Positions 26,883-58,317 of a DNA stretch of 60,712 bases are shown here, piece after piece (the first letter of the stretch is position 1; every line of letters begins with the position of its first letter). The DNA comes from a bacterium (GTDB lineage: Bacteria; Patescibacteriota; Saccharimonadia; Saccharimonadales; SZUA-47). Location: NCBI GenBank assembly GCA_030427445.1, contig JAUIBQ010000004.1, positions 1 to 60,712 of the forward strand, in the 5' to 3' direction. Position numbers and translations under genes: made by a program. The notes below the pieces were generated by a model. It saw only the letters and a list, made by a program, of their open reading frames with translations. It made no database searches and had not been told where the DNA came from.

Positions 26883-27197
26883 ATGGCAAAAGCAGTTGTA
26901 GCATTAGGTGGGTCACAGTACCTTGTGAGTGAAGGTGATACTTTCTCAGTTAACAAAATCAGTGATGCAGAAAATAATAAGAAGATCGAAGTAACCCCTC
27001 TTATGGTGGTTGACGGTGCTTCTTCAAAAGTTGGTGCACCAGACGTAAAAGGCGCCAAGGTAACGCTTAGTGTAGTTCAGGCAGTAGAGAAAGACGACAA
27101 AGTTACGGCAATTCGTTACAAATCTAAGAAACGAGTGCACAAGCGCCGCGGTCACCGACAGCAACTTACGACATTAAAAGTCGATAAAATAGCTTAG
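26883..27197 (+). CDS. rplU: 50S ribosomal protein L21
   Basis: GGSQYLVSEGD, YKSKKR...GHRQ..T. Confidence 0.95.
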   Translation: MAKAVVALGGSQYLVSEGDTFSVNKISDAENNKKIEVTPLMVVDGASSKVGAPDVKGAKVTLSVVQAVEKDDKVTAIRYKSKKRVHKRRGHRQQLTTLKVDKIA

Positions 27198-27215
27198 AGG
27201 CGTATAGCTACAACA

Positions 27216-27246
27216 AATAGAGCCCCCAGTGGGCTCTATTTTATTT
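27216..27246 (+). terminator. Terminator after rplU
   Basis: AAATAGAGCCC-CCAGT-GGGCTCTATTT. Confidence 0.85.
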
Positions 27247-27343
27247 AATTGCAATTCATTGGTAGTGACACTAGGATCACTCTCATTTAGTGCGAAGTAT
27301 TAGGTGCTTGCAGTGTAGTACTCTCGTCAGAGAGTTACTACAC

Positions 27344-27409
27344 TGTGGAAAACTTTATGTAAAAGCGTAAGAAATATACTTGAAATATTGAACAAAATTA
27401 GTGTACACT
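27344..27409 (+). promoter_or_regulatory. Promoter of giant gene 1 with upstream DnaA-box consensus
   Basis: TGTGGAAAA (27344-27352), TTGAAA (27380), 18 nt, TACACT (27404). Confidence 0.6.
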
Positions 27410-27482
27410 AGGGTTGTATCAGAGTAAAAACTGATACAAAGGGCGCGGTTTCGAAGTTAGTCTCGCAACTCTTCGATTCAGC

Positions 27483-30400
27483 GTGTTGCCAACAAACAAC
27501 AAAAAGCAACACGTGAAATATTTAAAAAACAACAAACATAAAAACGTACTATTAAATATATGTACAGCACGGGATGGCAGAGCATCCCTTGCTGGCGTTA
27601 GAGGCCATATACAACGTGTATGGCCTCTTTTCTTTGGTCTAATTTTTCAGATCAGCCGTCGTTCAACCTCACGCGCCCGAGTGTTGAACGACGTTTGTTC
27701 TGAAAAAGTCGTCAACCGAACCCAGTCTTCAACCTCACGCGCCCGAGTGTTGAATGCTGGGTTTGGTTTGCGACGAGCAAAACTCAGTATTCTAGGTCAG
27801 ACCCAGTCTTCAACCTCACGCGCCCGAGTGTTGAATGCTGGGTTTGGCTTTGAATACGCACAACCATCATTGCAGTCAGGATTAACCTCACGCGCCCGAG
27901 TGTTAATCCTGGCTATAGTGATGATGTTGGTTGCCCCTATGGTTATGGCAGTTACTAACGTAGGTATTGCCTCCGCCGCTCCATCCGACACCCTTAACTT
28001 CCAGGGTCGACTCCTCGATGTAAGTGGGGGTCTTGTCTCAGACGGTTACTACAACATAGAGTTTAATCTCTACACTGCAGCAAGCGGTGGATCAAGCATT
28101 TGGACAGAAAGCAGAGAATATAACTCAGGCTCAGGATCATGTACTGGACCTATCAATGGCAATGACTGTCGTGTGAGAGTCTCTAATGGATACTTCTCAG
28201 TTTACCTAGGTGAGGTCACTGCACTACCAAACATAGACTACAGTCAGCAACTCTACCTCACCATGAACATTGACCAAAACGGTACAACAAGCGCAGGAGC
28301 AATTACATACGACGGAGAAATGAACCCTAGATTCAAACTCACTGCAGTACCATATGCTTTCCGGGCTGCTAATGTTGCAAGTGGAGATACAAATGCAGCA
28401 TCAACTGACTCAAGTGACGTAAGTATTACTACTGGTGATGCACTCGGTGCGACAAGTGACTCAGGTGATGTCACGATAGATTCTGGAACAGCAACAGGCA
28501 CTGCAGGTCAGGTACTACTTGGTACTACAAACGCATCAGGTGTCTTAATCGGTAACGCGGGCGCCACAACTACGATTCAAGGGAGTGTGTCGCTTACGGG
28601 TGCAGGCACAGCCCTCACGGTTACGAATGACGCACAGTTTAATGGGGATGTGACTATTGGCTCAGATACGAGCGATTCATTGACCGTAGAGGCTGACGCG
28701 ACGTTTAACGGCTCCCTCACAGTGAGTACCGGTGATGTATTCCAGAATGCAGGTGCGACACTATTTAGCGCGACTAGTATTTCAGATAGAGCCACTGGTG
28801 GCAACATAGGCACGGCAGCAGCTACTGTAGATATTGCTACGACATTCGATGTCAACCAGACGACAGCAGGTCAAACACTTACATTGCCAACTCCAACAAA
28901 TACGGCTTCTGGTCGAGTTGTTTATGTAAACAACGTAGGTTCTGAGAACTTCACGATGTACGGCGAGACGATTGAGACTGGTAGCAGTAGTACATTTATA
29001 TGGAATGGATCTAGTTGGACGACTTCAGTATCGTTCTCTAACACTGGTGTAGACACAGTAGGTGCGCTAGATGGAGTTGCTGCAGCTGCAAACGGTGCGA
29101 CGATTTCTGGTACAACTATTTATCTCCAGTCTGCATCAGCTACTGCTGCTGGATTAGTAAACACATCAGCTCAGACATTTGCTGGCACTAAGACGTTCAA
29201 TAACGGTATTGTATTAGCCGCGAATCAGACCCTCACTGTTACAGGTGGCACAACTGCCAACCGTCCAGGTTCACCAACGGCTGGTATGGTCTATTATGAC
29301 ACTGATACAAACACCCTTCTTACGTATAACGGTACTAAGTGGATCGCGGATCGTGGTGAATACATTATTGTTGCGGCCAATGACTCTACACAAGCTGAGA
29401 AAGACAGTGCTGACTACGTAGCCGATAACACCGATGACCATTTGACTATTAACTCTGCAATAGGTGCACTGAGTAGCGGCGGAGGTAAAGTGTTACTCTT
29501 ACCGGGTACGTTCACGGTAGACGGTTCAATAGAGATAGAAAGCAATGTGACGCTCGCTGGTTCTGGTCAGGAAGCTACGACTCTTATTGCTGAAGCAGGT
29601 GCTTTAGCTGCACAATACGACGTTATCGAAAATGCAAACCCAGGTTCAACTGATAACAACATAACGATCCGTGACCTAACAATCGATGGAAATAAAGATA
29701 ATGTAACTGGTAATGACGTAGAAGGTATCCTGTTTGACACAGTAGGTTCTGGCAGCGGCGCTACGTACGTACGAGGCTTCTTGATCGAGAACATCACAGT
29801 TACTGACACTGAAGGTAACGGTATAGATATCGATACATCCGCAAACGGTTCTATTAAAAACGTAACAGTAAAAGACTTTGGCGTTGCAAATGGTATCCGC
29901 TTGCTCGATTCTGACTACATTAGGGTAGAAGGTAGCGACATAATCGATGGCTTAGCCGACGGACTGTTTATAAGTGCTTCGGACAATAATATTGTGTACG
30001 GCAACTTTATCGATGACAATGGGAATAATGGTTTAGAACTAAATGGAGCAACTCGAGACAACGTTATAGATGGCAACAGGATTACAAATAGTGGTGATCA
30101 TGGTATTGAGCTTGCTGGTGTGGGAGCAAAACAATACAACATTATCAGTAACAACTATATAGGTAATAACACTGATCGAGGATTTACCTCCGTAAATTCA
30201 TATCACAACACTATAACTGGTAACCAATTCTATACAAATGACGCGTCAGGCGTTGATAGTCATATTAATCTTGGTGGATCAGGCGCTAATAACGTCATTA
30301 CTAATAACGTTATCCGTGAAAGCTCAAGTGACGGTTCGGTTTCTATTGCGATTGCGTCTGGCAACGCCACTACATATGTAGCAGATAACCTTATCGACAA

Positions 30401-33400
30401 TGTTGGAGCTGTAGCAGACTCTAGTACATCTACAATCTATGCGAACCAGATGGATGCGTCAGACAATCTTGTACTTCAAGCATCTGGTACGGCAGACGTA
30501 CTTATTAACTCAGACACAAGCATCACAGGAGCACTTGACGTGACTGGTGCAGCAACCTTCGACGGAAATGTCACAGTCGGCGACGCAGCTGGCGACACAC
30601 TCACCGTGAACGCTGGCTCTATCCAATTTGCTAATAACTTCACTAGTTGTACAGTCATTAACACTGATGCTTCAGGCAACTTAGGATGTGATACTAGTAC
30701 ATATTTGACATCAGCAACTGTCTCGTTGCAGGGTGCTTATGACGGTGGTAATACGGTCACTACAACTAATGCACGCGATATATTGTTCACTCTTGCAGAC
30801 ACTACGACCGATAGTGACTTTATCATTGATATAGCTAGTGGTTCTACAAGTGAATTTGCTATCAAAGGTGCGGGCACCAACTTCTTCACAGCTACCCAAA
30901 CAACATCTCAAGAAGGTCAAATAGCAATTAAGTCTAACAGTGACTATGCTTTTGCTATTACAAACTTCCCTAACCAAGAAGTCTTTACTGTAGACGCAAA
31001 CTATGCACAAACTTTAGTAAGTAATAATGCTAACACTGCAGGACGACCAGCACTATCATTTGCACAAGATACAGACACCGGAATATATCGCATAGGTGCT
31101 GATCAGATTGGCGTCTCGACAGGTGGTTCTTTGAGAGTATCAGTTACTGACGCAACGACGACCGTAACAAACGCTCTAACTGTCACTGGCCTCACCACCC
31201 TCAACGGTGGCCTCACTGTCGAAGCAGGTGATAACTTCACCTTTAACTCAGATGTTTTCACAGACTTCACTGGTGGAGGACTATACAACAACTCCGGAGT
31301 ACTTAGTGTCTCTAACACTGGCGCATCTGGCTTTTTCCAGAATGGTGGAAACTTATTTGGCACTACAGCTACCCTAGGAACTAATGACCTAAACCCACTA
31401 GTACTTAGAACTAACTCCACAACAGCATTAACCATTGATACTTCTCAGAACATTACTACCACAGGAAACTTAGACGTGGCTGGTCGCGGTGCGTTTGGTA
31501 ATACTGGTGGTATAGGGACTAACTTTAATTTACTCGGAATCTTGCAGGTTGATGCTGAGCTATCTGTGGAAGCTAGCATTACATCTGTTATAAACGATGC
31601 ATATCAAGCTGCATCGGCAAATATATTATCTGTCAACCCAGCATCAAACCCTGCATCTTCTGGAAATATTATAGGAGGATTTGATTACGCTGAGGTGAAT
31701 GCTGCCAACACTACAAATGTTAGTAACCTAAATCTTGTTGGAACCGCTGGATTCGCTGTTGCACAAGGTAGCGGTGACATAGGAAGTGTTTCAGGCGGTT
31801 CCTTCAGTACTACTAATCTCAGCACGGGTACAGTCGGAGTGCTCTCGGGCATAGAAGCAGTTGTTACAAGTGGTGGGAGTGTGTCGGAGGCCTATGGAGG
31901 TAATATCATCCTTGGCAATTCAGGCAGTGGGACAATCTCAAACGCCAGAGGACTGAGAATTGACGTATTTAACTCGGGCAGTAGTATAACAAATGCCGCG
32001 GGCATAGTTGTTGAGAGGGTTCAAGGCACTAATACTACCAACTTGCTACTAGGTACAGGCACAATCCCATCCGGCAACTACTCAATCTACAGTGCTTCAA
32101 CAGCAGCTAACTACTTCGCAGGAAACCTCACATTAAACCAAGCACTGTTAGTTAACGGCAACACTACAATCGGTAACGCGAATACCGACACCTTGACAAT
32201 AAACGCTGGTTCATCTGGAAGTGGCATTACATTTGGGGATAGCTCATTTGCAAACTGTACACTTACTACGGTTGCAGGCGTTCTAACGTGTGGTTCATCT
32301 GGCTCTGCTTCTGACTTACAGGGTGCTTACGTCGGTGGTAACACAATTGTGGCAACCAATGCCGAAGGCGACATTGATTTGACGGTATCTGAAGCAACGA
32401 ACTTTACTGTAGACATAACAGGTACTGGTAACTTCCAGGTGCAAGACGGGGGCACACCGGTATTTACAGTAGCTGACGGCGGGGCATCAACATTTGCTGG
32501 GACATTAGCCGTGAATGCAGGCACTATAACAAACAGCGGTGCTGCTCAGTTAATTAACTTTACTTTAGGTGATGACGCAGATCAGGATCAGGTGGTAGGT
32601 CTAGCTGTTCAGCCGACAAGTGTAAACGGTGGTGATTTCGACAATCTTGTAGCTATATATGCAGCGCCTATTACTGCCTATGCTAACACCTGGGAAGTTG
32701 CGTACGGAGTTGGAGCTGGGTACGATATCGACTTTATTGTTTCAGACTCAGACGCAGTCTTTGCAGTAAATGATGGTGGGGTGTACAACTTCAACTCATA
32801 TAATGGTGCAACATTTGATACGCTAGTCACAATTACTGATGTAGGTTCCGTTGGTAACGTCGGTATAACCGGCACATTGCAGGTTGATGGCCTCACCACC
32901 CTTAACGGTGGCCTCACTATCCAAGCGGGAGACACATTTAACTTCAACAGTGACGCGTTTAGTGACTTCACAGGGGGCGGTCTCTACAACAATGCCGGTG
33001 TATTAAGCGTCACGAACACTGGTGCAAATGGGTTCTTCCAAAATGGCGGGAACAGCTTCGGTGTAGCTACCACTATCGGCACTAATGATGCACAAGCCCT
33101 AGGTATAGAAACAGGTGGGACCACACGCTTCACAGTAGCAGCTGCAGCCTCGACCCTAACTGGTAACGGCGCTACAACAATATTTGGTGGAACTTCACTT
33201 TACTTAGGTACTACTGGGGCCAATTCACTAACATTGGCTACAAATGGTACTACGAGGTTTACAGTAGCTAATAATGCTTCAACCATAAGCGGAAACGGTG
33301 CGACAAGTCTTGTTGGTGGTACTACACTAACCCTCAACGCAGCAGCTACAAGTGCACTCAACTTAGGGACAACTCAAACAACTGGAATACTTACCATTGG

Positions 33401-36400
33401 AGGCACTGGTGCAGCAACAGGAGCTATCAACCTAGGTACAGGTACGGGAGACCAAACGATCAACCTGGCAACTGGAAGCGGGTCTGGCAATAAGACAGTT
33501 ACGCTTGGAGCAAATAACGGTTCTAGTTCTACGACAGTACGATCAGGTTCTGGTGGAATTTCTCTACAAGGTAATACATCTGTATCTGGTCAACTCACAA
33601 TCGGTCAGGCTGATACTACCGGTACACTGCTCGTTTTAGATACTAAAACAGATCTAGGTGATCCGTCTGGCGTAAATGGTGCCCTGTACTACAACTCTAA
33701 TATTGATAAGTTCCGATGCTATGAAAATGGTTCATGGGTTGATTGTATGGCTGTAGTTTCAAACGGGACAAACCTGTATGGAGGCACAGGTGCACTTAGC
33801 ACAAATACAACAGGGTACAGTAATGTGGCATTTGGACAGAATGCGTTAGGGGTAAGTACGACAGGTTGGCAAAATGTCGCGGTAGGTGTTGGATCACTTT
33901 TTTCATCAACAGGTAATGACAATATCGCAATTGGCTTTAATGCTGGAGATAACCTCACTTCTGGCAACGGCAACATAATTATTGGCTCTGATATAGATTT
34001 TGCCTCTGCAACTGGCTTTAATCAACTAAACATCGCAGGTCTCATAACAAGCTCAAACTACACATCAGGCGGGCAGTTTAATGGCACCCTATTAGTGACA
34101 GGTCTAACTACACTCAATGGTGGCCTCACTGTTGAAGCAGGCGACACATTCACATTTAACTCCGATGCATTCACAGACTTCACTGGCGGTGGGTTAGTAA
34201 ATACAGGCGGTGTTCTATCAGTTGATACAACATCTGCAGCTGGCTTCTTCCGTAATGGAGGAAATAGCTTCAGTGGTACTGCAACATTAGGCACAAACAA
34301 CGCTAACAGTTTAGTACTGGAAACTAACAATCAATCAGCGCTAACTATAGCTAATGGCGGTGCTATTACTCTCCAGAACGCATCTAACTCTACAAATGCG
34401 TTTCGTGTGAACACGTCAGGAGGGGCGTCACTACTTAACGTCGATACTACAAACTCACTCGTGACGGTAGCGACGCCAGTCTTCCAGACAGTGACAAACA
34501 CTAACTGTGGAGTGAACTGTACTATTACTCAAAGTAATGTAGACAACAATTCAGCAATCATTGTAAATGCTACAGCAGAAGAACTGGAGATCACTCTACC
34601 TGATCCTACTAATGCTACAGCTGGTCGTGTTGTGTATGTTACAGCAGCGAATGGTTCAAACGACTTCACATTGCTTGTAAATGGCGGTGGTCAAGGCAAC
34701 GAGATTGCGATGCGCGCTAATACTACAGCGACGATGATTTGGAATGGAAATGATTGGACAGCTGCTGGTGCATCTAGTTCTACAACTCTGCAGGCAGCAT
34801 ATGACAATACACTTACAAGTGCCGGTGGTGCAGAAATTGTACTAAGTGCCGCAGGAGGAAACGCAGACGGACTTACAGTTCGAAACAATGCTACTGCGCC
34901 TATTATTGGTGGTATATTTGAGGCTCAGACGTCTATAGGCTCTAACTTGTTCAGTGTGAACAACAATGCAACAGAATTTGCAACGAATGGTGGAGCAGAA
35001 ACCGACGGTGGTGGGGCAAGTACATTCCCAGTAAGTACTTGGGATACAACTACAGGCGGTACGGTCGATAGATACACTACAGCTGGCGACAACGTCGCTA
35101 CAGGACAGGCTTCTGTACGAGTTCAGACTACAGGTGTTAATCACGGCGCTCGAAATAGAATAAGCACCGCACTGACATCAGGTCTTACATACACCGTGTC
35201 ATTTGCTGTCAGAGCTACTTCAAGCTTCTCAACGTTAGATGTTCTTTACTCTCCTGATGGCTCTACTTCCGGCACGACTAACTGTGCAACTGGACAACGA
35301 GTAACTAGTGGCCAGTGGACTCGCATCACCTGTACGTTTGTAGCTGGTGGTAGTATCAACTCAAATAATTCAATATTGATAAGACAGTCAGATGGAACAT
35401 CAAGGACATTCTATATAGACAACTTGAGTATCAACGTGAACGCTTCGGCTTCGTTCGCGGCAGATGGTAGCGTAGATGTAGCACTTGGCAGTAATTGGAC
35501 TGCATTCGGTACGCTAGACTCACTTACAAGAGAGACAAGCGTTATCTATGACACAAGTGGAAGTGTTGCTGTTGATACTCCTAACGCTGCTAACAGGGGC
35601 GTACGAAACAACCTATCGATTACTCCAGATACAGATACTCAATACCTCGTCAGTTTCTATGCGAGAAGCACAAACACATTCAATGACATTCGGGTCAGAT
35701 ACTCACGTAACGGAGGTTCAAACTTCGTAACTTGTGAAGACTACAATACTCAGAGCATATCGACGACTGGCTTTACAAAAGTAACGTGTCTCTTCACGAC
35801 AGACGGTACGACTGCATCTAACCCCGACTTGATTATTGATCAACCAACGGGCTCTAACCGTATCTTCTACATCGATGCGCTCACTGTGACACTTAACAGC
35901 GATACATCTAACAATGTTCAGATTGGTGGTGGTAATAGAGGTGGTCCCGTTACACTGTTCACCCTCGACAGATCAGCTGGTGCTCCGATAGCAGACAACA
36001 ACGAAGCATATCTCGGCTCTATGTACTATGACACCACAACAGGACGCATCCAATGTTATGAAGCTGATGGATGGGGTGCATGTGGTGCTCCACCTGACAA
36101 CGTAGTTAACCTAAACCCTGAGTATGCTGGTTCTGTGCTTAACGGCTCTGGTGTGGGTACTATGACTGCAGACTTCTGTTCAAATGGTACTGACCTTACT
36201 GTGAACACCAGTTTCTGTGATACAGGTGAAGCGCGTAACTTCTACAACTGGACATCTCCTCAAGCTACAGAACAGACATATAGCATCTATGTGACGTATC
36301 AATTACCTGAAACCTTTAACGGCTTTAGTAGCGATGACACTGTTCAGCTTGTGGGTCGTGTCGACAATACATCTAATGCATCTGTAACTTACGAAATGTT

Positions 36401-36638
36401 CCACTCAACTGGATCCGATGTAACTCAGTGTGGTACTGGTGAAACGAATGTTATTACAGGTGGTGGGGGCTCTGCAGATACGTGGTATAGCTACGGTATT
36501 AACGGCAACGAATCTACAGGCTGTGCGTTAAACGCGAGCGCAGCAGGAGATTTCATCATCTTCAAGATCAACTTGAAGGCACAAAGTAATGCTAACGCCT
36601 ATGTCTCAACCTTAAGCTTTGTTACTACTGGTAGATAG
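27483..36638 (+). CDS. Giant exported fibre/adhesin-like protein 1 (up to 3051 aa; start uncertain, alternative TTG 27870)
   Basis: Signal peptide ending IASA; TLNFQGRLLD domain; right-handed beta-helix (~29360-30450); three LNGGLT..AGD repeats; two CBM4/9-like domains (~34960-35900). Confidence 0.88.
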   Translation: MLPTNNKKQHVKYLKNNKHKNVLLNICTARDGRASLAGVRGHIQRVWPLFFGLIFQISRRSTSRARVLNDVCSEKVVNRTQSSTSRARVLNAGFGLRRAKLSILGQTQSSTSRARVLNAGFGFEYAQPSLQSGLTSRARVLILAIVMMLVAPMVMAVTNVGIASAAPSDTLNFQGRLLDVSGGLVSDGYYNIEFNLYTAASGGSSIWTESREYNSGSGSCTGPINGNDCRVRVSNGYFSVYLGEVTALPNIDYSQQLYLTMNIDQNGTTSAGAITYDGEMNPRFKLTAVPYAFRAANVASGDTNAASTDSSDVSITTGDALGATSDSGDVTIDSGTATGTAGQVLLGTTNASGVLIGNAGATTTIQGSVSLTGAGTALTVTNDAQFNGDVTIGSDTSDSLTVEADATFNGSLTVSTGDVFQNAGATLFSATSISDRATGGNIGTAAATVDIATTFDVNQTTAGQTLTLPTPTNTASGRVVYVNNVGSENFTMYGETIETGSSSTFIWNGSSWTTSVSFSNTGVDTVGALDGVAAAANGATISGTTIYLQSASATAAGLVNTSAQTFAGTKTFNNGIVLAANQTLTVTGGTTANRPGSPTAGMVYYDTDTNTLLTYNGTKWIADRGEYIIVAANDSTQAEKDSADYVADNTDDHLTINSAIGALSSGGGKVLLLPGTFTVDGSIEIESNVTLAGSGQEATTLIAEAGALAAQYDVIENANPGSTDNNITIRDLTIDGNKDNVTGNDVEGILFDTVGSGSGATYVRGFLIENITVTDTEGNGIDIDTSANGSIKNVTVKDFGVANGIRLLDSDYIRVEGSDIIDGLADGLFISASDNNIVYGNFIDDNGNNGLELNGATRDNVIDGNRITNSGDHGIELAGVGAKQYNIISNNYIGNNTDRGFTSVNSYHNTITGNQFYTNDASGVDSHINLGGSGANNVITNNVIRESSSDGSVSIAIASGNATTYVADNLIDNVGAVADSSTSTIYANQMDASDNLVLQASGTADVLINSDTSITGALDVTGAATFDGNVTVGDAAGDTLTVNAGSIQFANNFTSCTVINTDASGNLGCDTSTYLTSATVSLQGAYDGGNTVTTTNARDILFTLADTTTDSDFIIDIASGSTSEFAIKGAGTNFFTATQTTSQEGQIAIKSNSDYAFAITNFPNQEVFTVDANYAQTLVSNNANTAGRPALSFAQDTDTGIYRIGADQIGVSTGGSLRVSVTDATTTVTNALTVTGLTTLNGGLTVEAGDNFTFNSDVFTDFTGGGLYNNSGVLSVSNTGASGFFQNGGNLFGTTATLGTNDLNPLVLRTNSTTALTIDTSQNITTTGNLDVAGRGAFGNTGGIGTNFNLLGILQVDAELSVEASITSVINDAYQAASANILSVNPASNPASSGNIIGGFDYAEVNAANTTNVSNLNLVGTAGFAVAQGSGDIGSVSGGSFSTTNLSTGTVGVLSGIEAVVTSGGSVSEAYGGNIILGNSGSGTISNARGLRIDVFNSGSSITNAAGIVVERVQGTNTTNLLLGTGTIPSGNYSIYSASTAANYFAGNLTLNQALLVNGNTTIGNANTDTLTINAGSSGSGITFGDSSFANCTLTTVAGVLTCGSSGSASDLQGAYVGGNTIVATNAEGDIDLTVSEATNFTVDITGTGNFQVQDGGTPVFTVADGGASTFAGTLAVNAGTITNSGAAQLINFTLGDDADQDQVVGLAVQPTSVNGGDFDNLVAIYAAPITAYANTWEVAYGVGAGYDIDFIVSDSDAVFAVNDGGVYNFNSYNGATFDTLVTITDVGSVGNVGITGTLQVDGLTTLNGGLTIQAGDTFNFNSDAFSDFTGGGLYNNAGVLSVTNTGANGFFQNGGNSFGVATTIGTNDAQALGIETGGTTRFTVAAAASTLTGNGATTIFGGTSLYLGTTGANSLTLATNGTTRFTVANNASTISGNGATSLVGGTTLTLNAAATSALNLGTTQTTGILTIGGTGAATGAINLGTGTGDQTINLATGSGSGNKTVTLGANNGSSSTTVRSGSGGISLQGNTSVSGQLTIGQADTTGTLLVLDTKTDLGDPSGVNGALYYNSNIDKFRCYENGSWVDCMAVVSNGTNLYGGTGALSTNTTGYSNVAFGQNALGVSTTGWQNVAVGVGSLFSSTGNDNIAIGFNAGDNLTSGNGNIIIGSDIDFASATGFNQLNIAGLITSSNYTSGGQFNGTLLVTGLTTLNGGLTVEAGDTFTFNSDAFTDFTGGGLVNTGGVLSVDTTSAAGFFRNGGNSFSGTATLGTNNANSLVLETNNQSALTIANGGAITLQNASNSTNAFRVNTSGGASLLNVDTTNSLVTVATPVFQTVTNTNCGVNCTITQSNVDNNSAIIVNATAEELEITLPDPTNATAGRVVYVTAANGSNDFTLLVNGGGQGNEIAMRANTTATMIWNGNDWTAAGASSSTTLQAAYDNTLTSAGGAEIVLSAAGGNADGLTVRNNATAPIIGGIFEAQTSIGSNLFSVNNNATEFATNGGAETDGGGASTFPVSTWDTTTGGTVDRYTTAGDNVATGQASVRVQTTGVNHGARNRISTALTSGLTYTVSFAVRATSSFSTLDVLYSPDGSTSGTTNCATGQRVTSGQWTRITCTFVAGGSINSNNSILIRQSDGTSRTFYIDNLSINVNASASFAADGSVDVALGSNWTAFGTLDSLTRETSVIYDTSGSVAVDTPNAANRGVRNNLSITPDTDTQYLVSFYARSTNTFNDIRVRYSRNGGSNFVTCEDYNTQSISTTGFTKVTCLFTTDGTTASNPDLIIDQPTGSNRIFYIDALTVTLNSDTSNNVQIGGGNRGGPVTLFTLDRSAGAPIADNNEAYLGSMYYDTTTGRIQCYEADGWGACGAPPDNVVNLNPEYAGSVLNGSGVGTMTADFCSNGTDLTVNTSFCDTGEARNFYNWTSPQATEQTYSIYVTYQLPETFNGFSSDDTVQLVGRVDNTSNASVTYEMFHSTGSDVTQCGTGETNVITGGGGSADTWYSYGINGNESTGCALNASAAGDFIIFKINLKAQSNANAYVSTLSFVTTGR
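27600..27635 (+). terminator. Terminator-like hairpin inside the 5' part of gene 1
   Basis: AGAGGCCATATAC-AAC-GTGTATGGCCTCT-TTTCTTT. Confidence 0.7.
27643..27914 (+). repeat. Array of four hairpins with an invariant 21-nt cap
   Basis: AACCTCACGCGCCCGAGTGTT at 27665, 27731, 27812 and 27884, each closed by a complementary stem. Confidence 0.95.
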
Positions 36639-36790
36639 CACATAACGTTGTACATAAATCTACACTCAAAGTAAGTTAAAATCCATAGATTAATCGAATA
36701 CTATTAGTGTTCTAAAACTACTGTTACATATGTTCTGGTTATGCTAAAATAAGCTATAGAATTATAGAGATAAACATTCTAAGGGCGTGG

Positions 36791-39700
36791 ATGAAAAGAT
36801 TCAGAGGGTATTCTAAATCGAGCAGGAGCGGCAAGATGGTCGCAAGTGGATACTATGCTTTAAGTGATATAGGCTTATTTATTCTCGACCGAGTAGAGAG
36901 GCTTACTAGATCATTTTCTCATTCAAGACGGCTTAGTTTTTTGTTTTTGGCAGTCTTGTTTTCTTTCTCGATTTTTAGTGAGGCATTACTGTTTTTAAGC
37001 AAAGTTGATGCTTCTGACAGAATTACAGGGCAAGTCGAACAACTCTTGGTTGAGAAAATATCTAGCTATGGGAATTTTTTGAGTTTGAGCGAAGACGGAT
37101 CGCATTATGAATACAACAAGGGGTACCAAACCGGCAACAGTACGCTCGGAACGAAAGCATCGCCAAAGTTTAGCGGTCAATTCCCAGTCGATGGCTCAGA
37201 AGGTGTAACGGTCAACGATCCTTCCAGTGGTGTATCGATAAAGATTATCCCGCAGTTTAGGGTTGGAGACGCGTCCAAAGACGAAAATCGACTTGTATAT
37301 CCTCTCCTGGGCAGAGATGCCCTAAAAGTCGTCTCTCTCGGAGGAATCGGTTACAAAGAAGATATCGTTCTCAACACCTACCAGGGGAGGAGTCTTGAAT
37401 TTGACTATGAGTTAGATATACCAAACGGCATTGAGGCTAGACTCGAAGCTGACGGGTCGGTTGCGTTCTATGGCGTCAGAGATGAACTATTGGGTGATGT
37501 CACGACTGCAACCGAACAAGATTTACAGCTACTCGAGAGCGCAAAAGAAAATGGTGAGAAAACAAATTTATTGTTCAGGATACCAGCCCCATACACGCTT
37601 GAATACGCTAGGGAAGTGAGTGTCGTTGATACGTATTTCAAGCTTGACGGTACGACGTTAACCACAGTTGCAACGAACCTCGCTGAGGCGAAATATCCTT
37701 TAACCATCGATCCAAGTGTGTATGTAGAAACTGCACGGAAATTTCTACGTGGTAATGAAGAAACGAACGTCGACTTTGATGTCGACAATGAATTAATTCA
37801 GAAAGGCACCACCACAGGTGCTCGGTTCAATAATTGGTCGAGCACGCTAGCTTTAAACGAAGGACTATACGATGGCGGCAGTGCAGTAGCTGGTGGATAT
37901 GTCTACTACGTAGGGGGCCACACAGGTGCAGGTGGCACAACAGTCGAAACATTTACGTCTGATGGTACGTTTAACGTCCCGGCAGGAGTTACATCGGTAA
38001 CTGTAGAGATGTGGGGCGGTGGCGGCGGTGGCGGCGGCGGCGGTACGAACGCCGGCAGTAATGGCGGTGATGGCGGCGGCGGCGGCTACGCACGTTCAAC
38101 TGTGTCTGTGACACCTGCAGAAAACCTGAATGTTCTTGTTGGCGGCGGTGGTGGCGGCGGTGAAGTAAGTGGTATCTCAGGATCAGGCGGCGGTGGCGGC
38201 GGTCACTCAGAAGTCAATCGCGGTGGTTCACCTTTGGTTATAGCGCCAGGCGGCGGCGGTGGTGGCGGCGGTGATAACTCAGGCGGTGCTGTAGCTGGAG
38301 GTGATGGTGGTGCAGGTGGAGATTCTTCTGGCGGCCTTCCCGGTGATAGCTCAGGATCAGCAGGCGGCGGTGGCGCTGCAACATCTTCTAGCGGTGGCTC
38401 AGGAGGTAATGGTCCTAATAGTGATGGTGAAGCAGGTGGGTCTGAGTTTGGTGGCGACGGTGCAGACGGTCGTGATACCGAAGATAATTCAGATGGCTCT
38501 GCGGCAAATGGCGGATCAAATGGCGGCGGTCCAGGTGGTTTAGCGAACGAGAGCGCTGCGGGTTTTGGTGCTGGCGGTGGCGGTGGTAGCGGATATTATG
38601 GCGGCGGTGGTGGCGCTGGTTCGCAGTCTGGTGGTGATGGTGGTGGCGGTGGTGGTAGTGGTGTTGCGTATTTTGGTGCAGGTACGTCTTCCACGACATC
38701 CACTGGTGGAAGTGGCGCTACACCGGGTAACAGTGGCGACCTTGATCGTGCTGGTGCTGCAGATGGCGGTTCAGGCGGAAACTCAGGAGGCTCTCAGTCA
38801 GCCGGTAGTGTAGGGGACGACGGTATCGTAATTATTTCTTATACAGTATCAGCTTCAAACACAACCAATACTACAGTCTACTGGGCAAATATCGATGATA
38901 ACAGCGGTGGCGTTAGCTCAGCCAACCCAGGAAATGGTGCATGTGCATCATGGTGTACCAATACTGACTACGACCTACCAGAAGAACGACGATCGTTTAG
39001 TTTAGTGGCATATAATGGGTTTCTTTATGCAATAGGGGGTGAAGACGACAGCGGTAACTTCGAAAGTACAGTTTATATAGCGAAGATAGGCGCCAATGGA
39101 GAGCCGAGTTTATGGCACCCTACTGATGACAACAAGGCAAACTGGGTATATTGGTATGAAGATACCAGCGGAGCTTTATCGACCCCAACCCGCTATGGTG
39201 CTGCAAAGGCCTTTAACAACAGACTCTACTTTTTAGGCGGTGAAACATCTGGCGGCGTTGTATCAACAGTGCAATATACTGACTTCGAACCAACTGGCAC
39301 TTTGTCTGGATGGACAACATCTGGAACATCATCCATGTCCACGCCTCGTTACATGCATTCAGTCGAAGCATACAATGACTATCTCTATGTAATAGGCGGA
39401 GATGCGAACACTAGTGGTTCTTTATTGAATACTGTCGATTATGTAAAGCTTGCGAACGATGGGACTTTTGATGGATCCTGGGAATCCACGAGCGCTTTTA
39501 GTAGTGCAAGGCGTACAAATGGCGGTAAATTTACAGCAGTGTACGGAGCATATATTTATTTAACAGGTGGGTGTGTCTCTGTAAGCAGTGGGTATTGTCA
39601 GTCTGTGGGGGATGAAATACAGATTGCTAGCATCTTTGCCGACGGCAGTCTGGGTGATTGGTCTACTGACAGTAATGAAACCAACAATAGAGTAGGGTAC

Positions 39701-42700
39701 GGCTTACATACATGGCAGGGTCATGTGTATCGAGTTGGTGGTTGTACGTCAGTGTCCCCAGGCAGCCATGATTGCTCGACTGCGCTAAGTGGTGTTGACT
39801 TCGGTACAATCAATCCTCCTGGAGAAGTATCTACAGTCAATATCACTGAGTCGTATGGTAGTGGTAATTGTACTGGTGCGACTCCAAATGATTGCGATTT
39901 ACCAGCGACTGGAGACGGGTCAGGACAAGGAGGGCAGATGCTCTCTATGTCAGTGATACTTAATGGATATTTGTATGTTATCGGAGGCTGTACTAACTTT
40001 GGTTGTAGTGATTCTTCTGGCAACGTTTCTTATGCTCAAGTGAGTTCAGATGGCAGCTTAGTCCAAGAAAGCACTTGTGTTGCAAACGGGAACTCATACG
40101 CAAATAGCGGTAATAGCACATGGTGTGTTGATTCGACTAATAGGGTCAACGGCACCAGCGGTATCTCAGCTGCAGGAGTGACAGTGTTTGAGAACAGAAT
40201 CTATTTGGTTGGAGGTATTGACGGAACAGCGACTGGTACGCAGAGTATCTATTGGAATACGATTAATTCTGATGGTAGTTTGTCAGGTGCATGGTCTTCG
40301 ACATCTTTGAACGCAGCAGGGATCACTGCATATACAGAATTATCGTATACGTACGCTTACGCACGAGCAAATCCACAAGCCGCGGGTACGAATCCAGGTA
40401 ATCTGTATGTGCTTGGCGGATGTACCTCGTTTTCTGCCTCTGCTGGGTGTTCAAGTAGCTACGCTTCGGAAGTTTACAAATGTAACATCACTACGTCTGG
40501 TGCGGTTAGCGGCTGTACGACTTCAGGGCAATTGCAAATTGACTCTGAATTAGCGAGTGAATCTAATGAAGGTCTTGGACTGCATTCAGGAACTGTATAC
40601 GCAAATTACATTTATCTTATTGGTGGGTATAGCGACAATGTAGGTGACCGTGACACTGTATTTTATGCAAGGTTTGATGACAGTAATAATATCGTGGATG
40701 TAGAAAGTGGTACCGCTGTGCTTGGCGACCCTGATGATGATTGGATACAGTCTGCTAATGATCTTGATGTGGGTAGACGACGTGGCTGGGCATTCGGATA
40801 TAACGGACATATATACGCGGTCGGAGGATATGATGATACTGGTACAGGAATTATTCCATTTATTGAGTGGGGTAAGCTCAATGTTAGTGATGGTAGTCTT
40901 GATACTTTTGTAACATCTTCTATTACGATTAACCAACGCTGGGGACTGTCTATGGTAGTGTCTAACTCGTTTGCCTACGTTGTCGGAGGTTGTGATGTTG
41001 GCCCAAGCCCAGGTGGATGTAGTAGTTTCGAACCCTCTGTCCAGACATTCCAGCTTTATAACAATGACTCTGGAGCTCAAGCTAACTACACGGAACAGAT
41101 TGGTAATTTCGCTACGAACAATGATCGAATTGGCTCAAGTGCGGCAATTTTAGACGGATATATATATGTTGCAGGTGGTGATACATCTGGAACTGCTACG
41201 AACAATGTCCAATATGCAAAGCTTAATGCTAATGGGACTATCGGCTCTTGGTCTGATACTACAGCAAGCCTTCCATCTGCTAGGTCATATGGTCAACTCG
41301 AGGTGTCAGGCGGAACACTATATTATGTAGGAGGTGAAGATACTGCTGGTGACGAGAAGAGTGAAGTATACTACGCTACTCCTACGACAACATCTGCAGC
41401 TAATGATACGATTCGCTCAACCACGTATAAGCTTAATTCCAATGAATTTAGTGGTGTTAATTATACGCTCTCACTCAATAACAACTTAGAATCTGACTAC
41501 TACGTAATGGTCGCGGGTGCCGATGATACTAACGGTACTAGTGGCCCAGATAGCTCCCATGTAAGAGTTGATGGTGACCCTTTTGGTAATCTCACAGCTA
41601 CCACTGCAGCAGATGAAATCCGTCTTGAACGTGGAAGTTCTGACGACAACTGGAATGGCACAGTAACTGTTGTCGAATGTATAGACAATTGTGCTACTGA
41701 TGGTTTTCAGTTGAGAGAGGTTATTGACGGAACATTGCAGAGCGGAGATACGAGTGAAGATTTTACTCTCAGTTCTGCGCACGATACTAACACAGTACCT
41801 TTTGGAGGATATTTAGGAGGTGGCTTGTCTACTACTGATACAAATCAAAATAACTTCAATGCGACTGCTGGTGTGCGGGTGCGAAAAAATAGTACCAACC
41901 AAATACGTGTTGAGAGAAACGACACACAGGGTACGGCTTCCGCCGCTGATATAACGATATATGTTGTAGAGTGGGGTTCTAGCTGGAATGTACAAGAAGT
42001 AAATGTAGATAACTGGAGCGAGGGTGGGGCTGGTGTAGACGCGACAGGAGAATATCATCAAGAGAGTATTTCGTCAGTAACGGGCGCAAATACGTGGGTC
42101 TGGAAATCTCCAGGTACATCAGAGCAAAATGGCTTAGGTGATGGCGCTTTTGGTAAGGTGTTGACGCTTGGTGACGGAGTTGCTGATCCAACTGGAACCG
42201 TCACACAAATATCTTTAGGGTCAAGATATAGCGATGCTGCAGACGTTAGGGATGACACAGTGTACGTTATGGAGCATTCAAGCCTGGCTGTTGATTATCG
42301 TTTTCATACTGAGAGCGGAACAATTACATTCACAGAGACTGTTGATAGTTCAATTGAGCCAGAGACTGTTTCAACAATAGGTAACGTTACAAGCTCTGAA
42401 GGCTATAGGGTGCCCCTATTCTACTATTCGTCGACTGGTACAGGTACCGCATACACGCGTGTAGCCGGTTATTCTCACTACTATACGAACGATACAACAG
42501 TATCAATCTCTAGAGACTACAATGGTCAGGATAATGCTGGTTGGTTACAATCAGTAGATTTTGGTAATCTTGCAGGATCAGGCGGTGGAGCAGGTGACAT
42601 ATCTACGTGGTCAACCGCGAGCAATGGTCTTCCTGGTGATAGAACTAAGCATGGTGCTGCGGTGTGGAACGACCGAATATATGTAGTTGGTGGACTGAAT

Positions 42701-44503
42701 GATAGTGCAAGCCCTACAAACACTGTGTACATCTCACCTAAGTTAAGTGGAGGTGGAAATATTACAACAGCATGGGCGACTGATGCGGACGTGCCAGATG
42801 TTGCAAGGAGCGGTGCAACAGTTATCTCATATGCCAACAACCTGTATTTCTTAGGAGGAAACGACGGAACAAACTATCTTTCTGATGTGCAGTTTACAAC
42901 AATAGGTTATAAAACAGGCACTATTAGTCAGTCAGGTACGACTTTGACCGGTACTGGTACCACATGGACATCTAGTATGGTTGGGAGTGTTGTTCAGTAC
43001 GCTGATGGTTCCTATGCTAATGTCACTGGGTTCACAAATGCTACCACGCTAACTGTTGATGCTAGTAAAACCGTGGACCCAGGCACAAGATACCTCATTG
43101 ACGATGGATCAGTAGGGAACTGGACGTATACTACTAACCTAACACGACAAGTAAGTGACGCAGATGGATTTGCAGTAAATGGTTTTATCTATCTATTTGG
43201 CGGTAGGTCTTCTGATTTTGAATGCACAAACAATAGTTATGTAGCACCAATAAGCGCTAATACCACAATCGACTCTGGAAACAATCCAACAGGTATAGGT
43301 GAATGGTACCAGACTAACGTAGAATTTTCAGGAGCCCGTCGCAGCCCTGCAGTTGCGTATAGTGAAGGTAAGGTTTATATATCAGGAGGAGGATGCGATA
43401 CCGGTACTATACAATACGGTCAATACACATTCGATTCAGATAATGACTCTGATGAATCAGCGTGGACTTTTGTCTCGGATAACGGTTCTAATGGTCTAAA
43501 CCCAGCAAATACTGGGCGCGCATGGTCTCACGATACCAATGATACTTCTTCAGGCAATGTGGGTCCGACTTCTGGACAGGGGGGCAATCCTGACGGTTAC
43601 GTGTATACAGAAGCTTCAAACCCGGCGAGTGGGGGCGATACGTTTACTATGACCTTAAATAATACATTAAATGCATCTACACATGACTGGGAGGTCGACT
43701 TCTTCTGGAATCAACGCGGTGATGACAATACTGCAATCGTACGAGTGCAGACAAATGAAGGCGGTGGAGGTTGGGTCACACGGGGGACGTACGGTAGCGG
43801 AGGACCAGATGTCGCATCTGGCGGAACTCAGGTGTGGAATGGTGAGACGCTAGACTTAGCTTCAGCAATAAGTAACTCATCAACTCAGGTAAGATTCCAA
43901 GTAACCTTAGGGTCTACAGGAAATATATGGCATAACGACTTTGGGCTGGACTCGATCACCATTACGGGTACAGCTCCATCAGTGTATCCTGAGCTAACTT
44001 CAAGTCAGCACTATATAGGTACGCTTCGAGCTCAACCTCAAGTGGCCCGGTACTCATATTTCGTAGATGCAGATAGTGATGTGTTCCCGAACTCATGGTT
44101 GCTTAACGGTCTGGATAATAACATTGGTGCACGGTGGCAGTTTGCATATCGTTCGTCTACAGATGCTGCAAATACATGGGGGCTTGATACGGACTTTGGT
44201 GATGTTCAGCTGGGACGAGTTGAACCGTATATCCCGAAAGATGGAGCAGGCGTAGACACTGAGTTCGCTAGGTACTTCTATGTCACAGTGTCAATCGACG
44301 CATCTCAAACATTCGGGTACCCAGACGATGTTGCGAGAGGCCCTACGGTGACAGATATGTCCCTCTTCTTCGTGTCTGATCCGAATAAACGGTTACGTCA
44401 TGGTAAGACGTTTATACAAGGGCTTGAACAGCCTCTGGACACGCCATGTAGAGTTAGTGGTGCAAGTCCCGCTGGAAGTCAGCCTAACTGTCCTATCCCT
44501 TAG
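36791..44503 (+). CDS. Giant Kelch-repeat surface protein with Gly-rich and MAM-like domains (2570 aa)
   Basis: N-terminal TM; KEDIVL...IPAP...YPLTIDP domain; Gly-rich domain (~37950-38850); many YxxGG Kelch blades; GPTSG...GYVYTEAS MAM-like segment (~43420-43970). Confidence 0.88.
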   Translation: MKRFRGYSKSSRSGKMVASGYYALSDIGLFILDRVERLTRSFSHSRRLSFLFLAVLFSFSIFSEALLFLSKVDASDRITGQVEQLLVEKISSYGNFLSLSEDGSHYEYNKGYQTGNSTLGTKASPKFSGQFPVDGSEGVTVNDPSSGVSIKIIPQFRVGDASKDENRLVYPLLGRDALKVVSLGGIGYKEDIVLNTYQGRSLEFDYELDIPNGIEARLEADGSVAFYGVRDELLGDVTTATEQDLQLLESAKENGEKTNLLFRIPAPYTLEYAREVSVVDTYFKLDGTTLTTVATNLAEAKYPLTIDPSVYVETARKFLRGNEETNVDFDVDNELIQKGTTTGARFNNWSSTLALNEGLYDGGSAVAGGYVYYVGGHTGAGGTTVETFTSDGTFNVPAGVTSVTVEMWGGGGGGGGGGTNAGSNGGDGGGGGYARSTVSVTPAENLNVLVGGGGGGGEVSGISGSGGGGGGHSEVNRGGSPLVIAPGGGGGGGGDNSGGAVAGGDGGAGGDSSGGLPGDSSGSAGGGGAATSSSGGSGGNGPNSDGEAGGSEFGGDGADGRDTEDNSDGSAANGGSNGGGPGGLANESAAGFGAGGGGGSGYYGGGGGAGSQSGGDGGGGGGSGVAYFGAGTSSTTSTGGSGATPGNSGDLDRAGAADGGSGGNSGGSQSAGSVGDDGIVIISYTVSASNTTNTTVYWANIDDNSGGVSSANPGNGACASWCTNTDYDLPEERRSFSLVAYNGFLYAIGGEDDSGNFESTVYIAKIGANGEPSLWHPTDDNKANWVYWYEDTSGALSTPTRYGAAKAFNNRLYFLGGETSGGVVSTVQYTDFEPTGTLSGWTTSGTSSMSTPRYMHSVEAYNDYLYVIGGDANTSGSLLNTVDYVKLANDGTFDGSWESTSAFSSARRTNGGKFTAVYGAYIYLTGGCVSVSSGYCQSVGDEIQIASIFADGSLGDWSTDSNETNNRVGYGLHTWQGHVYRVGGCTSVSPGSHDCSTALSGVDFGTINPPGEVSTVNITESYGSGNCTGATPNDCDLPATGDGSGQGGQMLSMSVILNGYLYVIGGCTNFGCSDSSGNVSYAQVSSDGSLVQESTCVANGNSYANSGNSTWCVDSTNRVNGTSGISAAGVTVFENRIYLVGGIDGTATGTQSIYWNTINSDGSLSGAWSSTSLNAAGITAYTELSYTYAYARANPQAAGTNPGNLYVLGGCTSFSASAGCSSSYASEVYKCNITTSGAVSGCTTSGQLQIDSELASESNEGLGLHSGTVYANYIYLIGGYSDNVGDRDTVFYARFDDSNNIVDVESGTAVLGDPDDDWIQSANDLDVGRRRGWAFGYNGHIYAVGGYDDTGTGIIPFIEWGKLNVSDGSLDTFVTSSITINQRWGLSMVVSNSFAYVVGGCDVGPSPGGCSSFEPSVQTFQLYNNDSGAQANYTEQIGNFATNNDRIGSSAAILDGYIYVAGGDTSGTATNNVQYAKLNANGTIGSWSDTTASLPSARSYGQLEVSGGTLYYVGGEDTAGDEKSEVYYATPTTTSAANDTIRSTTYKLNSNEFSGVNYTLSLNNNLESDYYVMVAGADDTNGTSGPDSSHVRVDGDPFGNLTATTAADEIRLERGSSDDNWNGTVTVVECIDNCATDGFQLREVIDGTLQSGDTSEDFTLSSAHDTNTVPFGGYLGGGLSTTDTNQNNFNATAGVRVRKNSTNQIRVERNDTQGTASAADITIYVVEWGSSWNVQEVNVDNWSEGGAGVDATGEYHQESISSVTGANTWVWKSPGTSEQNGLGDGAFGKVLTLGDGVADPTGTVTQISLGSRYSDAADVRDDTVYVMEHSSLAVDYRFHTESGTITFTETVDSSIEPETVSTIGNVTSSEGYRVPLFYYSSTGTGTAYTRVAGYSHYYTNDTTVSISRDYNGQDNAGWLQSVDFGNLAGSGGGAGDISTWSTASNGLPGDRTKHGAAVWNDRIYVVGGLNDSASPTNTVYISPKLSGGGNITTAWATDADVPDVARSGATVISYANNLYFLGGNDGTNYLSDVQFTTIGYKTGTISQSGTTLTGTGTTWTSSMVGSVVQYADGSYANVTGFTNATTLTVDASKTVDPGTRYLIDDGSVGNWTYTTNLTRQVSDADGFAVNGFIYLFGGRSSDFECTNNSYVAPISANTTIDSGNNPTGIGEWYQTNVEFSGARRSPAVAYSEGKVYISGGGCDTGTIQYGQYTFDSDNDSDESAWTFVSDNGSNGLNPANTGRAWSHDTNDTSSGNVGPTSGQGGNPDGYVYTEASNPASGGDTFTMTLNNTLNASTHDWEVDFFWNQRGDDNTAIVRVQTNEGGGGWVTRGTYGSGGPDVASGGTQVWNGETLDLASAISNSSTQVRFQVTLGSTGNIWHNDFGLDSITITGTAPSVYPELTSSQHYIGTLRAQPQVARYSYFVDADSDVFPNSWLLNGLDNNIGARWQFAYRSSTDAANTWGLDTDFGDVQLGRVEPYIPKDGAGVDTEFARYFYVTVSIDASQTFGYPDDVARGPTVTDMSLFFVSDPNKRLRHGKTFIQGLEQPLDTPCRVSGASPAGSQPNCPIP

Positions 44504-58195: not shown

Positions 58196-58317
58196 GTTAG
58201 GTAGATCTGACTGACAAACAAAAAACGAAAAACAAACAGATCACAAGAACCAACTGAGAGGCAGGGTGAAACCTGCTACTTTTGGTAAAAACACAAAACT
58301 AAAACCAAAGGCAAAAA

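Follow-up and report, generated by a model that had tools for sequence, protein, structure and literature searches.

An apparently undescribed, conserved RNA element at the start of a giant Saccharibacteria gene, with coding-sequence hairpin loops complementary to a motif in its own leader

In the MS2 maturation gene, a 5′ structure hides the initiation site and a transient helix confines translation to nascent RNA (PMC3695514). The same source covers ribosome-mediated attenuation in the trp leader, in which the translating ribosome decides whether the terminator forms (PMC3695514). A third kind of control is represented by IS10 RNA-OUT, the pT181 attenuator, R1, and ColIb-P9, where a GC-rich loop on a stem with an upper bulge recognizes a short target, and this recognition switches translation or termination (PMC3753616). 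Saccharibacteria genomes of less than 1 Mb keep clusters of genes for proteins of 2,500 to 3,700 amino acids (aa), which raises the question of how the expression of such costly genes is metered. Here we describe an RNA element of ~520 nt at the start of one such gene and compare it with these systems.

The window analyzed (60,712 nt; contig C34 of a 966-kb assembly, genome label G000) carries rplU and then four co-oriented genes whose products are 3,041, 2,570, 272, and 3,724 aa long; all window features below are on the plus strand. Gene 1 (27513..36638; 3,041 aa) has a conserved GTG/ATG start and encodes a giant low-complexity protein with a hydrophobic, signal-peptide-like segment (27900..27977, judged by inspection), after which a conserved LNFQGRL domain begins at 27993. 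A Pfam search with gene 1 returned no match. Its homologs contain beta-helix, CBM_4_9, or S74 chaperone domains, and these domains together with the hydrophobic N-terminal segment suggest that the product is probably surface exposed. Another open frame (58300-60712), whose N-terminal domain is of the same LNFQ type, is cut by the end of the contig, so the cluster of giant genes extends further. The N-terminal coding region of gene 4 is also structured (45548-45760): an invariant 16-nt small hairpin with codons GRDAR (45558-45573), present in genomes G001 and G025 as well, is followed by a U-tract hairpin and long hairpins, all before a signal-like segment. One gene of the G025 giant-gene cluster (G025:C34, L161), located ~29.8 kb downstream from its leader, has a YHIYNRG motif and resembles REP-associated Y1 transposases; none was found in G000. 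SRP54 and FtsY were not found in G000 either, and SRP loss is reported for Parcubacteria (PMC4508563). Hairpin pausing as a stand-in for SRP was rejected as an explanation of the structures in gene 1, since the hairpins precede the hydrophobic segment and pausing there would come too early for such a role.

A covariance model matched 17 of 30 family members (16 of 30 after G028 was dropped on inspection), and BLAST matched 17 of 60 relatives; G006 and G058 match in the coding domain only, and G006 is counted in denominators only. In another family, the complete element is present in G129 and a leader in G161; the leaders of G161 and G014 are cut off by contig edges, and no array was found for either. 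Biofloc and marine metagenomes contain the DNA. A metagenome search with a pattern that specified neither motif nor loop returned 13 loci, and the motif was present in all 13 and loops were present in all 11 that were long enough. When relatives with a changed core were sought by covariance models in 151 genomes of the order and 160 further genomes, G129 and G161 alone came up, and neither differs in its core; five weak matches (G096, G109, G117, G139, and G177; E values of 0.017 to 0.043) are outside this count, and the 160 further genomes yielded no homolog. Two scans of viral contigs detected no element, and six matches from outside Saccharibacteria, among 21 genome-contig matches, were inspected and none was homologous. 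Rfam 15 assigned no family to the element at gathering score, one scan returning only rRNAs for the window and another returning six weak matches far below the cut-off. Literature searches on Saccharibacteria, Patescibacteria, CPR, and coding-region loop pairing returned no description, although supplementary motif catalogues and subscription journals could hold one. TM7x is described as having no validated small RNAs (10.1101/2022.03.25.485537). The RNA element is real and conserved, and it appears to be undescribed.

A candidate sigma70-type promoter (27380..27409; −35 TTGAAA, −10 TACACT) predicts a transcription start at ~27416. It has 9 of 12 consensus matches, which is not above shuffled sequences, and a similar −10 region precedes the leaders of relatives. 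Its spacer contains TGAACA...TGTT (27389-27409), which is kept among homologs and could be an operator; a scan of G000 for this pattern gave no clear regulon. Upstream of the promoter lies TGTGGAWAA (27344-27352), which is found again at ~45430 and in most metagenome homologs and presumably resembles a DnaA box. No minus-strand promoter-like site was found in 27150-28000. The one piece from an RNA run (158 nt) includes the −10 box and is thus uninformative on where the transcript starts or ends.

Folding places a variable 5′ hairpin, P1, at 27414..27439, just before the motif GGGCGCG (27441..27447; core GGGCGC), which complements the array loops described below and, more weakly, the 5′ strand of P3. 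The core is present in all 28 distinct leaders compared, which were chosen by this motif after motif-blind searches. The region 27400-27945 as a whole folds far more stably than shuffled sequences (z = −14). The first-pass annotation described the motif as unpaired between leader hairpins, and this was not confirmed: five of its seven bases are paired in the minimum-energy fold of the region, and the 6-nt core has a mean unpaired probability of 0.21 in the window leader (0.10 to 0.70 over the 28 leaders), rising to ~0.7 in the window only just after P3 has formed. The next hairpin, P2 (27451..27476), shows two-sided pair changes beneath a CUCGCA loop (27462-27467) that is invariant in alignments, and is a candidate protein-binding module. 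P3 (27482..27513; A-rich loop; arms 27482-27489 and 27506-27513) ends, at its 3′ arm, on the first base of the start codon (27513), and CAC-RTG-AAA stands at its foot in every leader. The P3 pair that involves this base (82:113) is U-A in 10 of 15 sequences and C-G in 5 of 15; this two-sided change, together with a start region predicted to be paired, is what is looked for in a hairpin that sequesters an initiation site, as in the MS2 maturation gene.

CUCGCA-loop hairpins like that of P2 also occur away from the element. Several Saccharimonadales families have a separate conserved unit (in G000 at C39, ~33800-34000, minus strand, L194; elsewhere L185, L186, L187, L188, and L081) in which a promoter, an inverted repeat, CAAAAAC, the hairpin, an A-rich stretch, and a terminator follow one another, mostly before a comM/YifB-like gene. 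We take the inverted repeat to resemble CIRCE, the HrcA operator, and one possibility is that the unit is a heat-shock small RNA acting to titrate a CUCGCA-binding protein. Additional hairpins with a CUCGCA loop and A-rich flanks occur close to large or secreted genes, either in leaders or between genes (L148, L149, L080, L175, and L079).

Downstream of the start codon, folds and the consensus fold place a hairpin, P5, at 27565..27594, and an intrinsic-terminator-like hairpin with a U tract follows at 27600..27635 (approximately codons 30 to 41). By a lenient rule devised for this analysis, 25 of 26 loci have a terminator-like element at most 260 nt from the start, compared with 0 of 60 control windows taken from the gene 1 body; several loci owe theirs to the first loop hairpin, which has a U tract after it. 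All 21 leaders that have the whole region (six more reach a contig edge) show an uninterrupted reading frame between the conserved start and the LNFQ domain, over extensions of 97 to 214 codons; P5, the terminator-like hairpin, and the array are therefore translated. A leader-peptide attenuator would have a short open reading frame that ends before the terminator, and here the frame crosses the terminator in 21 of 21 complete loci. The motif does lie upstream of the terminator, as had been claimed, whereas the ~220-nt attenuated RNA of that claim is not a non-coding species: it contains the start codon and ~40 codons. That annotation also lacked the start codon hidden in P3, the placement of the terminator-like hairpin and the array within the frame, and the P3 5′ strand as another partner of the motif.

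After the terminator-like hairpin, four long hairpins stand within the reading frame: hairpin 1 at 27643..27707 (26 pairs; loop core 27672-27678; −33.0 kcal/mol), hairpin 2 at 27708..27774 (27 pairs; 27738-27744; −39.7 kcal/mol), hairpin 3 at 27787..27857 (29 pairs; 27819-27825; −39.5 kcal/mol), and hairpin 4 at 27858..27931 (30 pairs; 27891-27897; −35.2 kcal/mol), the 3′ arm of which encodes the beginning of the hydrophobic segment. Across loci the array has two to six hairpins, the first loop lies 124 to 211 nt downstream of the start codon, and the loop spacing is a multiple of three, one degenerate copy excepted. GCGCCC occupies the apex of 69 of the 75 hairpins with at least 18 pairs, the other six being mostly terminator-like or downstream hairpins and one degenerate copy, and loop cores are fully unpaired when folded in 79 of 85 cases. 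The stems average 26 positions and include bulges and numerous G-U pairs. Counted over a fixed stretch of 18 positions, the sense strand shows 1,166 Watson-Crick, 145 G-U, 20 A-C, and 99 other oppositions, and the ratio of G-U to A-C points to RNA. In the loop codons, silent third positions are kept while Arg changes to Cys; these cores were selected by hexamer, and the hairpin census is the unbiased figure. Taken together, the stem oppositions, loop census, and loop codons indicate that selection is acting on the RNA of the array. One further hairpin with a ACGCGCCC loop stands alone in the spacer between genes 1 and 2 of G002, just after the gene 1 stop (L147), and is the sole loop hairpin seen outside an array.

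Because in-frame palindromes inside genes are known, we considered whether the array might be a tolerated mobile palindrome, like the Rickettsia palindromic elements, with a chance complement in the leader. Those elements likewise place long hairpins in frame within a protein gene. The element differs from them in being confined to one locus per genome, at a fixed position, with divergent stems and constant loops. RPE, REP, and MITE families are recognized by dispersed copies, and a search of G000 for the 21-nt loop unit, allowing up to four mismatches, found only the four copies at the array; PF01797, the family of the Y1 (RAYT) transposase, was also absent from that genome. In addition, a loop complement would arise in the leader by chance with a probability of 0.002 to 0.01, and the motif is kept across two families. 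We regard this explanation as largely refuted and highly improbable.

The matches that drew attention to the locus were confirmed, namely, GGGCGCG at 27441-27447 and CGCGCCC at 27672, 27738, 27819, and 27891. Motif and loop could form the seven G-C pairs proposed, with −14.1 kcal/mol for the free duplex, and the complementarity is limited to 6 to 8 nt over the loci and cannot be extended. The additional GGGCGCG noted at 43514 in coding DNA is indeed there, as the sixth match in the window (2.24 expected; 2 of 100 shuffles as high). This copy is within chance, the heptamer occurring 19 times genome-wide; from the genome-wide frequency, the probability of GGGCGCG in a given 220-nt stretch is 0.002. 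The six core pairs are invariant and thus carry no covariation information. Over 25 loci, which are related and so not independent, the seventh pair is G-C in 9, A-U in 11, a C-A mismatch in 5, and G-U in none: all 11 loci with a U in the loop have an A in the leader, none of the 9 loci with a leader G has a loop U, and the base is the same in all copies within a locus, with one exception. The flanking pair is C-G in 20 loci, A-U in G129, U-G in one, and A-G in three, including the window. The changes at position 7 represent a single event or a few, on a tree of poor resolution (stars on 4 of 24 inner branches). The outgroup G129 has a mismatch at the seventh pair, so that this pair may have arisen along two routes, and the leader G/A follows the change in P3 and the start codon better than it follows the loops. 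The seventh and flanking pairs fit pairing between loop and motif; a single DNA site present in two orientations would fit them also. Of the proposed long-range pairing, then, conservation and RNA-type stems speak for it and covariation does so weakly; the independent variation of loop and leader that would have counted against it was not seen, the core being invariant. We consider the loop-motif pairing itself probable.

A reading with no RNA-RNA pairing at all would have a protein bind GGGCGC as double-stranded DNA in both orientations, or would make the hairpins DNA recombination sites. An inverted copy of a DNA site would by its nature show the same conservation and the same position 7 correlation, and the variation in hairpin number would suit recombination. 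Against both versions stand the excess of G-U oppositions on the sense strand (145 versus 20) and the cores placed at hairpin apices, and the orientation is identical at all loci. The genome G000 (97% complete) has no IS110 or Y1 transposase; PF01548, the DEDD recombinase that would accompany an IS110 bridge RNA, is absent. The hairpins are adjacent in one frame with no cassettes between them, as they would not be in an integron attC array. Contigs of eight runs contained no joint inside the array, which is weak evidence, since contigs lose rare variants. We think this reading quite unlikely.

The motif is also predicted to capture a second partner, the 5′ strand of P3, with G-U pairs at positions 2, 3, and 5 (all energies here are nearest-neighbor computations without pseudoknots). 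In 27 of 27 leaders, G2, G3, and G5 of the motif face U in this strand yet stay G, as pairing with the loop C's would require, and the seventh pair between motif and strand is G-C or A-U. The in-register helix is within 0.4 to 3.5 kcal/mol of P3 in 17 leaders and 4 to 9 kcal/mol weaker in 10, including the window; its probability on the nascent transcript is correspondingly 0.73 to 0.92 in the 17 and 0.00 to 0.22 in the 10, which belong to the window's clade. When transcripts ending 30 nt after the start were folded with the motif blocked, the cost of opening positions −13 to +13 rose by 2.4 to 6.8 kcal/mol (median, 5.4) in 28 of 28 leaders, and in the window from 4.9 to 11.0 kcal/mol. Blocking the P2 loop shifted the cost by no more than 0.3 kcal/mol, while blocking the 7 nt upstream also raised it in many leaders, by up to 3.3 kcal/mol; in 27 of 28 leaders, the real motif did better than 20 shuffled motifs did on average. 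The loop duplex, at −14 to −16.5 kcal/mol, compares with approximately −7 kcal/mol for the duplex with the P3 strand. At every length tested, even in the absence of the loops, the start was predicted to be mostly closed (unpaired probability in the window, 0.11 to 0.28), so some further opener may be needed.

These computations bear on a further reading, in which the loop-motif pairing is real and its effect is structural or opposite to repression (activation or compaction of the 5′ end), or in which the stems serve as RNase III sites. For activation, loop capture would free the motif from a helix after P5: the consensus fold puts motif positions 5 to 8 in a 4-bp helix there, and in longer folds the stretch after P5 is the main predicted partner of the motif in most leaders. 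At each position of that helix the pair is broken in 1 to 3 of the 15 sequences, no pair has changed on both sides, and the rise in opening cost with the motif blocked, in every leader, runs against activation. In the RNase III version, cleavage would stop translation and release small loop-bearing RNAs. RNase III is present in G000, the stems are long, and in several loci the first loop hairpin has its own U tract; the bulges and many G-U pairs of the stems argue the other way. We judge this family of explanations rather unlikely.

The model that we consider best is a strand-exchange relay, to which we assign a probability of roughly 45%. On a short transcript, GGGCGC(R) would pair with the P3 5′ strand through the predicted G-U-rich helix and so lower the barrier to opening the start. 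A ribosome loaded in this early period would cover the in-frame terminator, so that the 9-kb gene would be transcribed only with a committed ribosome, and unloaded transcripts would end at ~220 nt. Once made, the first loop would capture the motif by 6 to 8 mostly G-C pairs; the P3 5′ strand would be released, P3 would shut, the start would be hidden, and initiation would fall. With multiple loops, at least one could stay folded while a ribosome unwinds another, and in some lineages spare loops may bind the motif at the start of gene 2 or gene 3. The net result would be that each giant-protein message is limited to its first few ribosomes. The relay assumes tight coupling of transcription and translation in Saccharibacteria. 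The Rho N-terminal domain was absent from all five genomes searched, so the intrinsic terminator could serve polarity. If the relay is real, it would be a natural example of hairpin loops that are both translated and in control of their own start codon, hairpin copy number being the tunable part, and its pairing step needs no known protein. More speculative, and in our view doubtful, is the broader idea of a protein-free rationing of ribosomes, in which the coding sequence is its own multicopy antisense and a terminator, a loop array, and spare loops acting on partner-gene starts work together; if that were true, an ultra-small cell would produce each of its giant proteins in very small numbers and in coordination. 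Two other factors were considered and set aside. A NusG paralog was rejected because G000 has a single NusG. A tRNA as partner of the motif was rejected after the tRNA list, which includes two tRNA-Arg genes with a GCG anticodon, was checked by eye; the Rfam search showed no T-box.

A second copy of the motif, AAGGGCGTGG (36781..36790), abuts the ATG of gene 2 (36791..44503; Kelch-repeat protein of 2,570 aa with an N-terminal hydrophobic segment), as first reported, and could pair with the loop at −15.2 kcal/mol with one G-U. It overlaps a Shine-Dalgarno-like AAGGG, which lies 5 nt before the ATG; no 16S 3′ end was found in the assembly. The pattern AAGGGCG[CT]GG occurs in the 966-kb assembly only in the leader and at this start. 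An extended −10-like element ~40 nt before gene 2 (36740..36750), with similar elements before several gene 2 homologs, suggests that gene 2 has a separate short-leader transcript. An altered anti-Shine-Dalgarno sequence was rejected, as G000 uses AGGAG (85 of 733 starts).

Such copies are the basis of a model in trans, an idea of the first-pass annotation, in which the array is a multivalent dock or sponge that co-regulates the giant proteins or co-localizes their messages; its targets would be new nascent leaders (as copy number feedback), the terminated 220-nt RNA, and the starts of genes 2 and 3. The motif is found at −8 to the ATG in gene 2 of G000, G020, and G025 and in the unrelated gene 3 of G025, and each of these starts can form seven pairs with the loops of its own genome. 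The background frequency is low (GGGCG[CT] lies close to 2 of the 733 first-ATG starts of G000), and the motif is absent from the gene 2 homolog starts of G007, G017, and G026, where the leader was not found. Judged by eye, 6 of the 13 WAGGGCGYRNATG matches in element-bearing genomes resemble real starts, against none of the 7 in other genomes, and the lone G002 hairpin after gene 1 would also suit an action in trans. Against this, 6 of 10 gene 2 and gene 3 starts in element-bearing genomes are without the motif (gene 2 of G001, G002, and G129; gene 3 of G000, G001, and G129; G016, whose start could not be placed, is omitted), and the three gene 2 cases are close orthologs and thus share one origin. 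AAGGG stands at normal Shine-Dalgarno spacing, the pairing cannot exceed 6 to 8 bp, and Hfq was not found in any of five genomes searched; across the family, WAGGGCGYRNATG gave 20 matches overall and the reversed control gave 8. In G000, a third possible target (C29:58512) was dropped because it is kept in 0 of 5 orthologs, and a wider regulon through a C16 gene was rejected, as that gene has no homolog in five genomes. We consider the model in trans unlikely. Of the suggested coordination of genes 1 and 2, what stands is the motif abutting the ATG at 3 of 6 gene 2 starts and 1 of 4 gene 3 starts; the gene 2 copy is more than chance would give but patchy, and any coordination is lineage limited at most. 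It is possible that the gene 2 copy is a lineage-specific add-on and not a core part of the element. In G129, GGGCGCAA stands directly before an ATG at C1 ~414790 (L164), 23 kb from the element, and may be there by chance.

To return to the relay and its closest relatives, the likeness to the MS2 maturation gene lies in the hidden initiation site and in the computed transient helix that would compete with P3; the element differs in that its proposed lock is a set of tandem hairpin loops in the coding sequence of a chromosomal 9-kb gene with an in-frame terminator. As in IS10, pT181, R1, and ColIb-P9, a GC-rich hairpin loop on a stem with an upper bulge would recognize a short linear target, to which it is complementary here with conservation and weak covariation. 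Unlike the IS10/pT181 type, it has no separate antisense gene: an antisense regulator in the usual sense is a separate RNA with extended complementarity, and the element has 6 to 8 bp, repeated two to six times in the reading frame of the same transcript. As in trp attenuation, a translating ribosome would govern an intrinsic terminator, but there is neither a leader peptide nor a set of control codons; what is translated is the giant gene, and initiation would be the point of decision. The zipper-type attenuator of pLS20 is similar in that a very long transcription unit is preceded by a structured leader containing a long stem and a terminator, and it differs in being untranslated, in working by stem extension, and in having no loop array described in the abstract of its report (PMC13401043). 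By analogy, the element would work like an MS2-type window, loop-linear antisense control, and ribosome-dependent termination combined.
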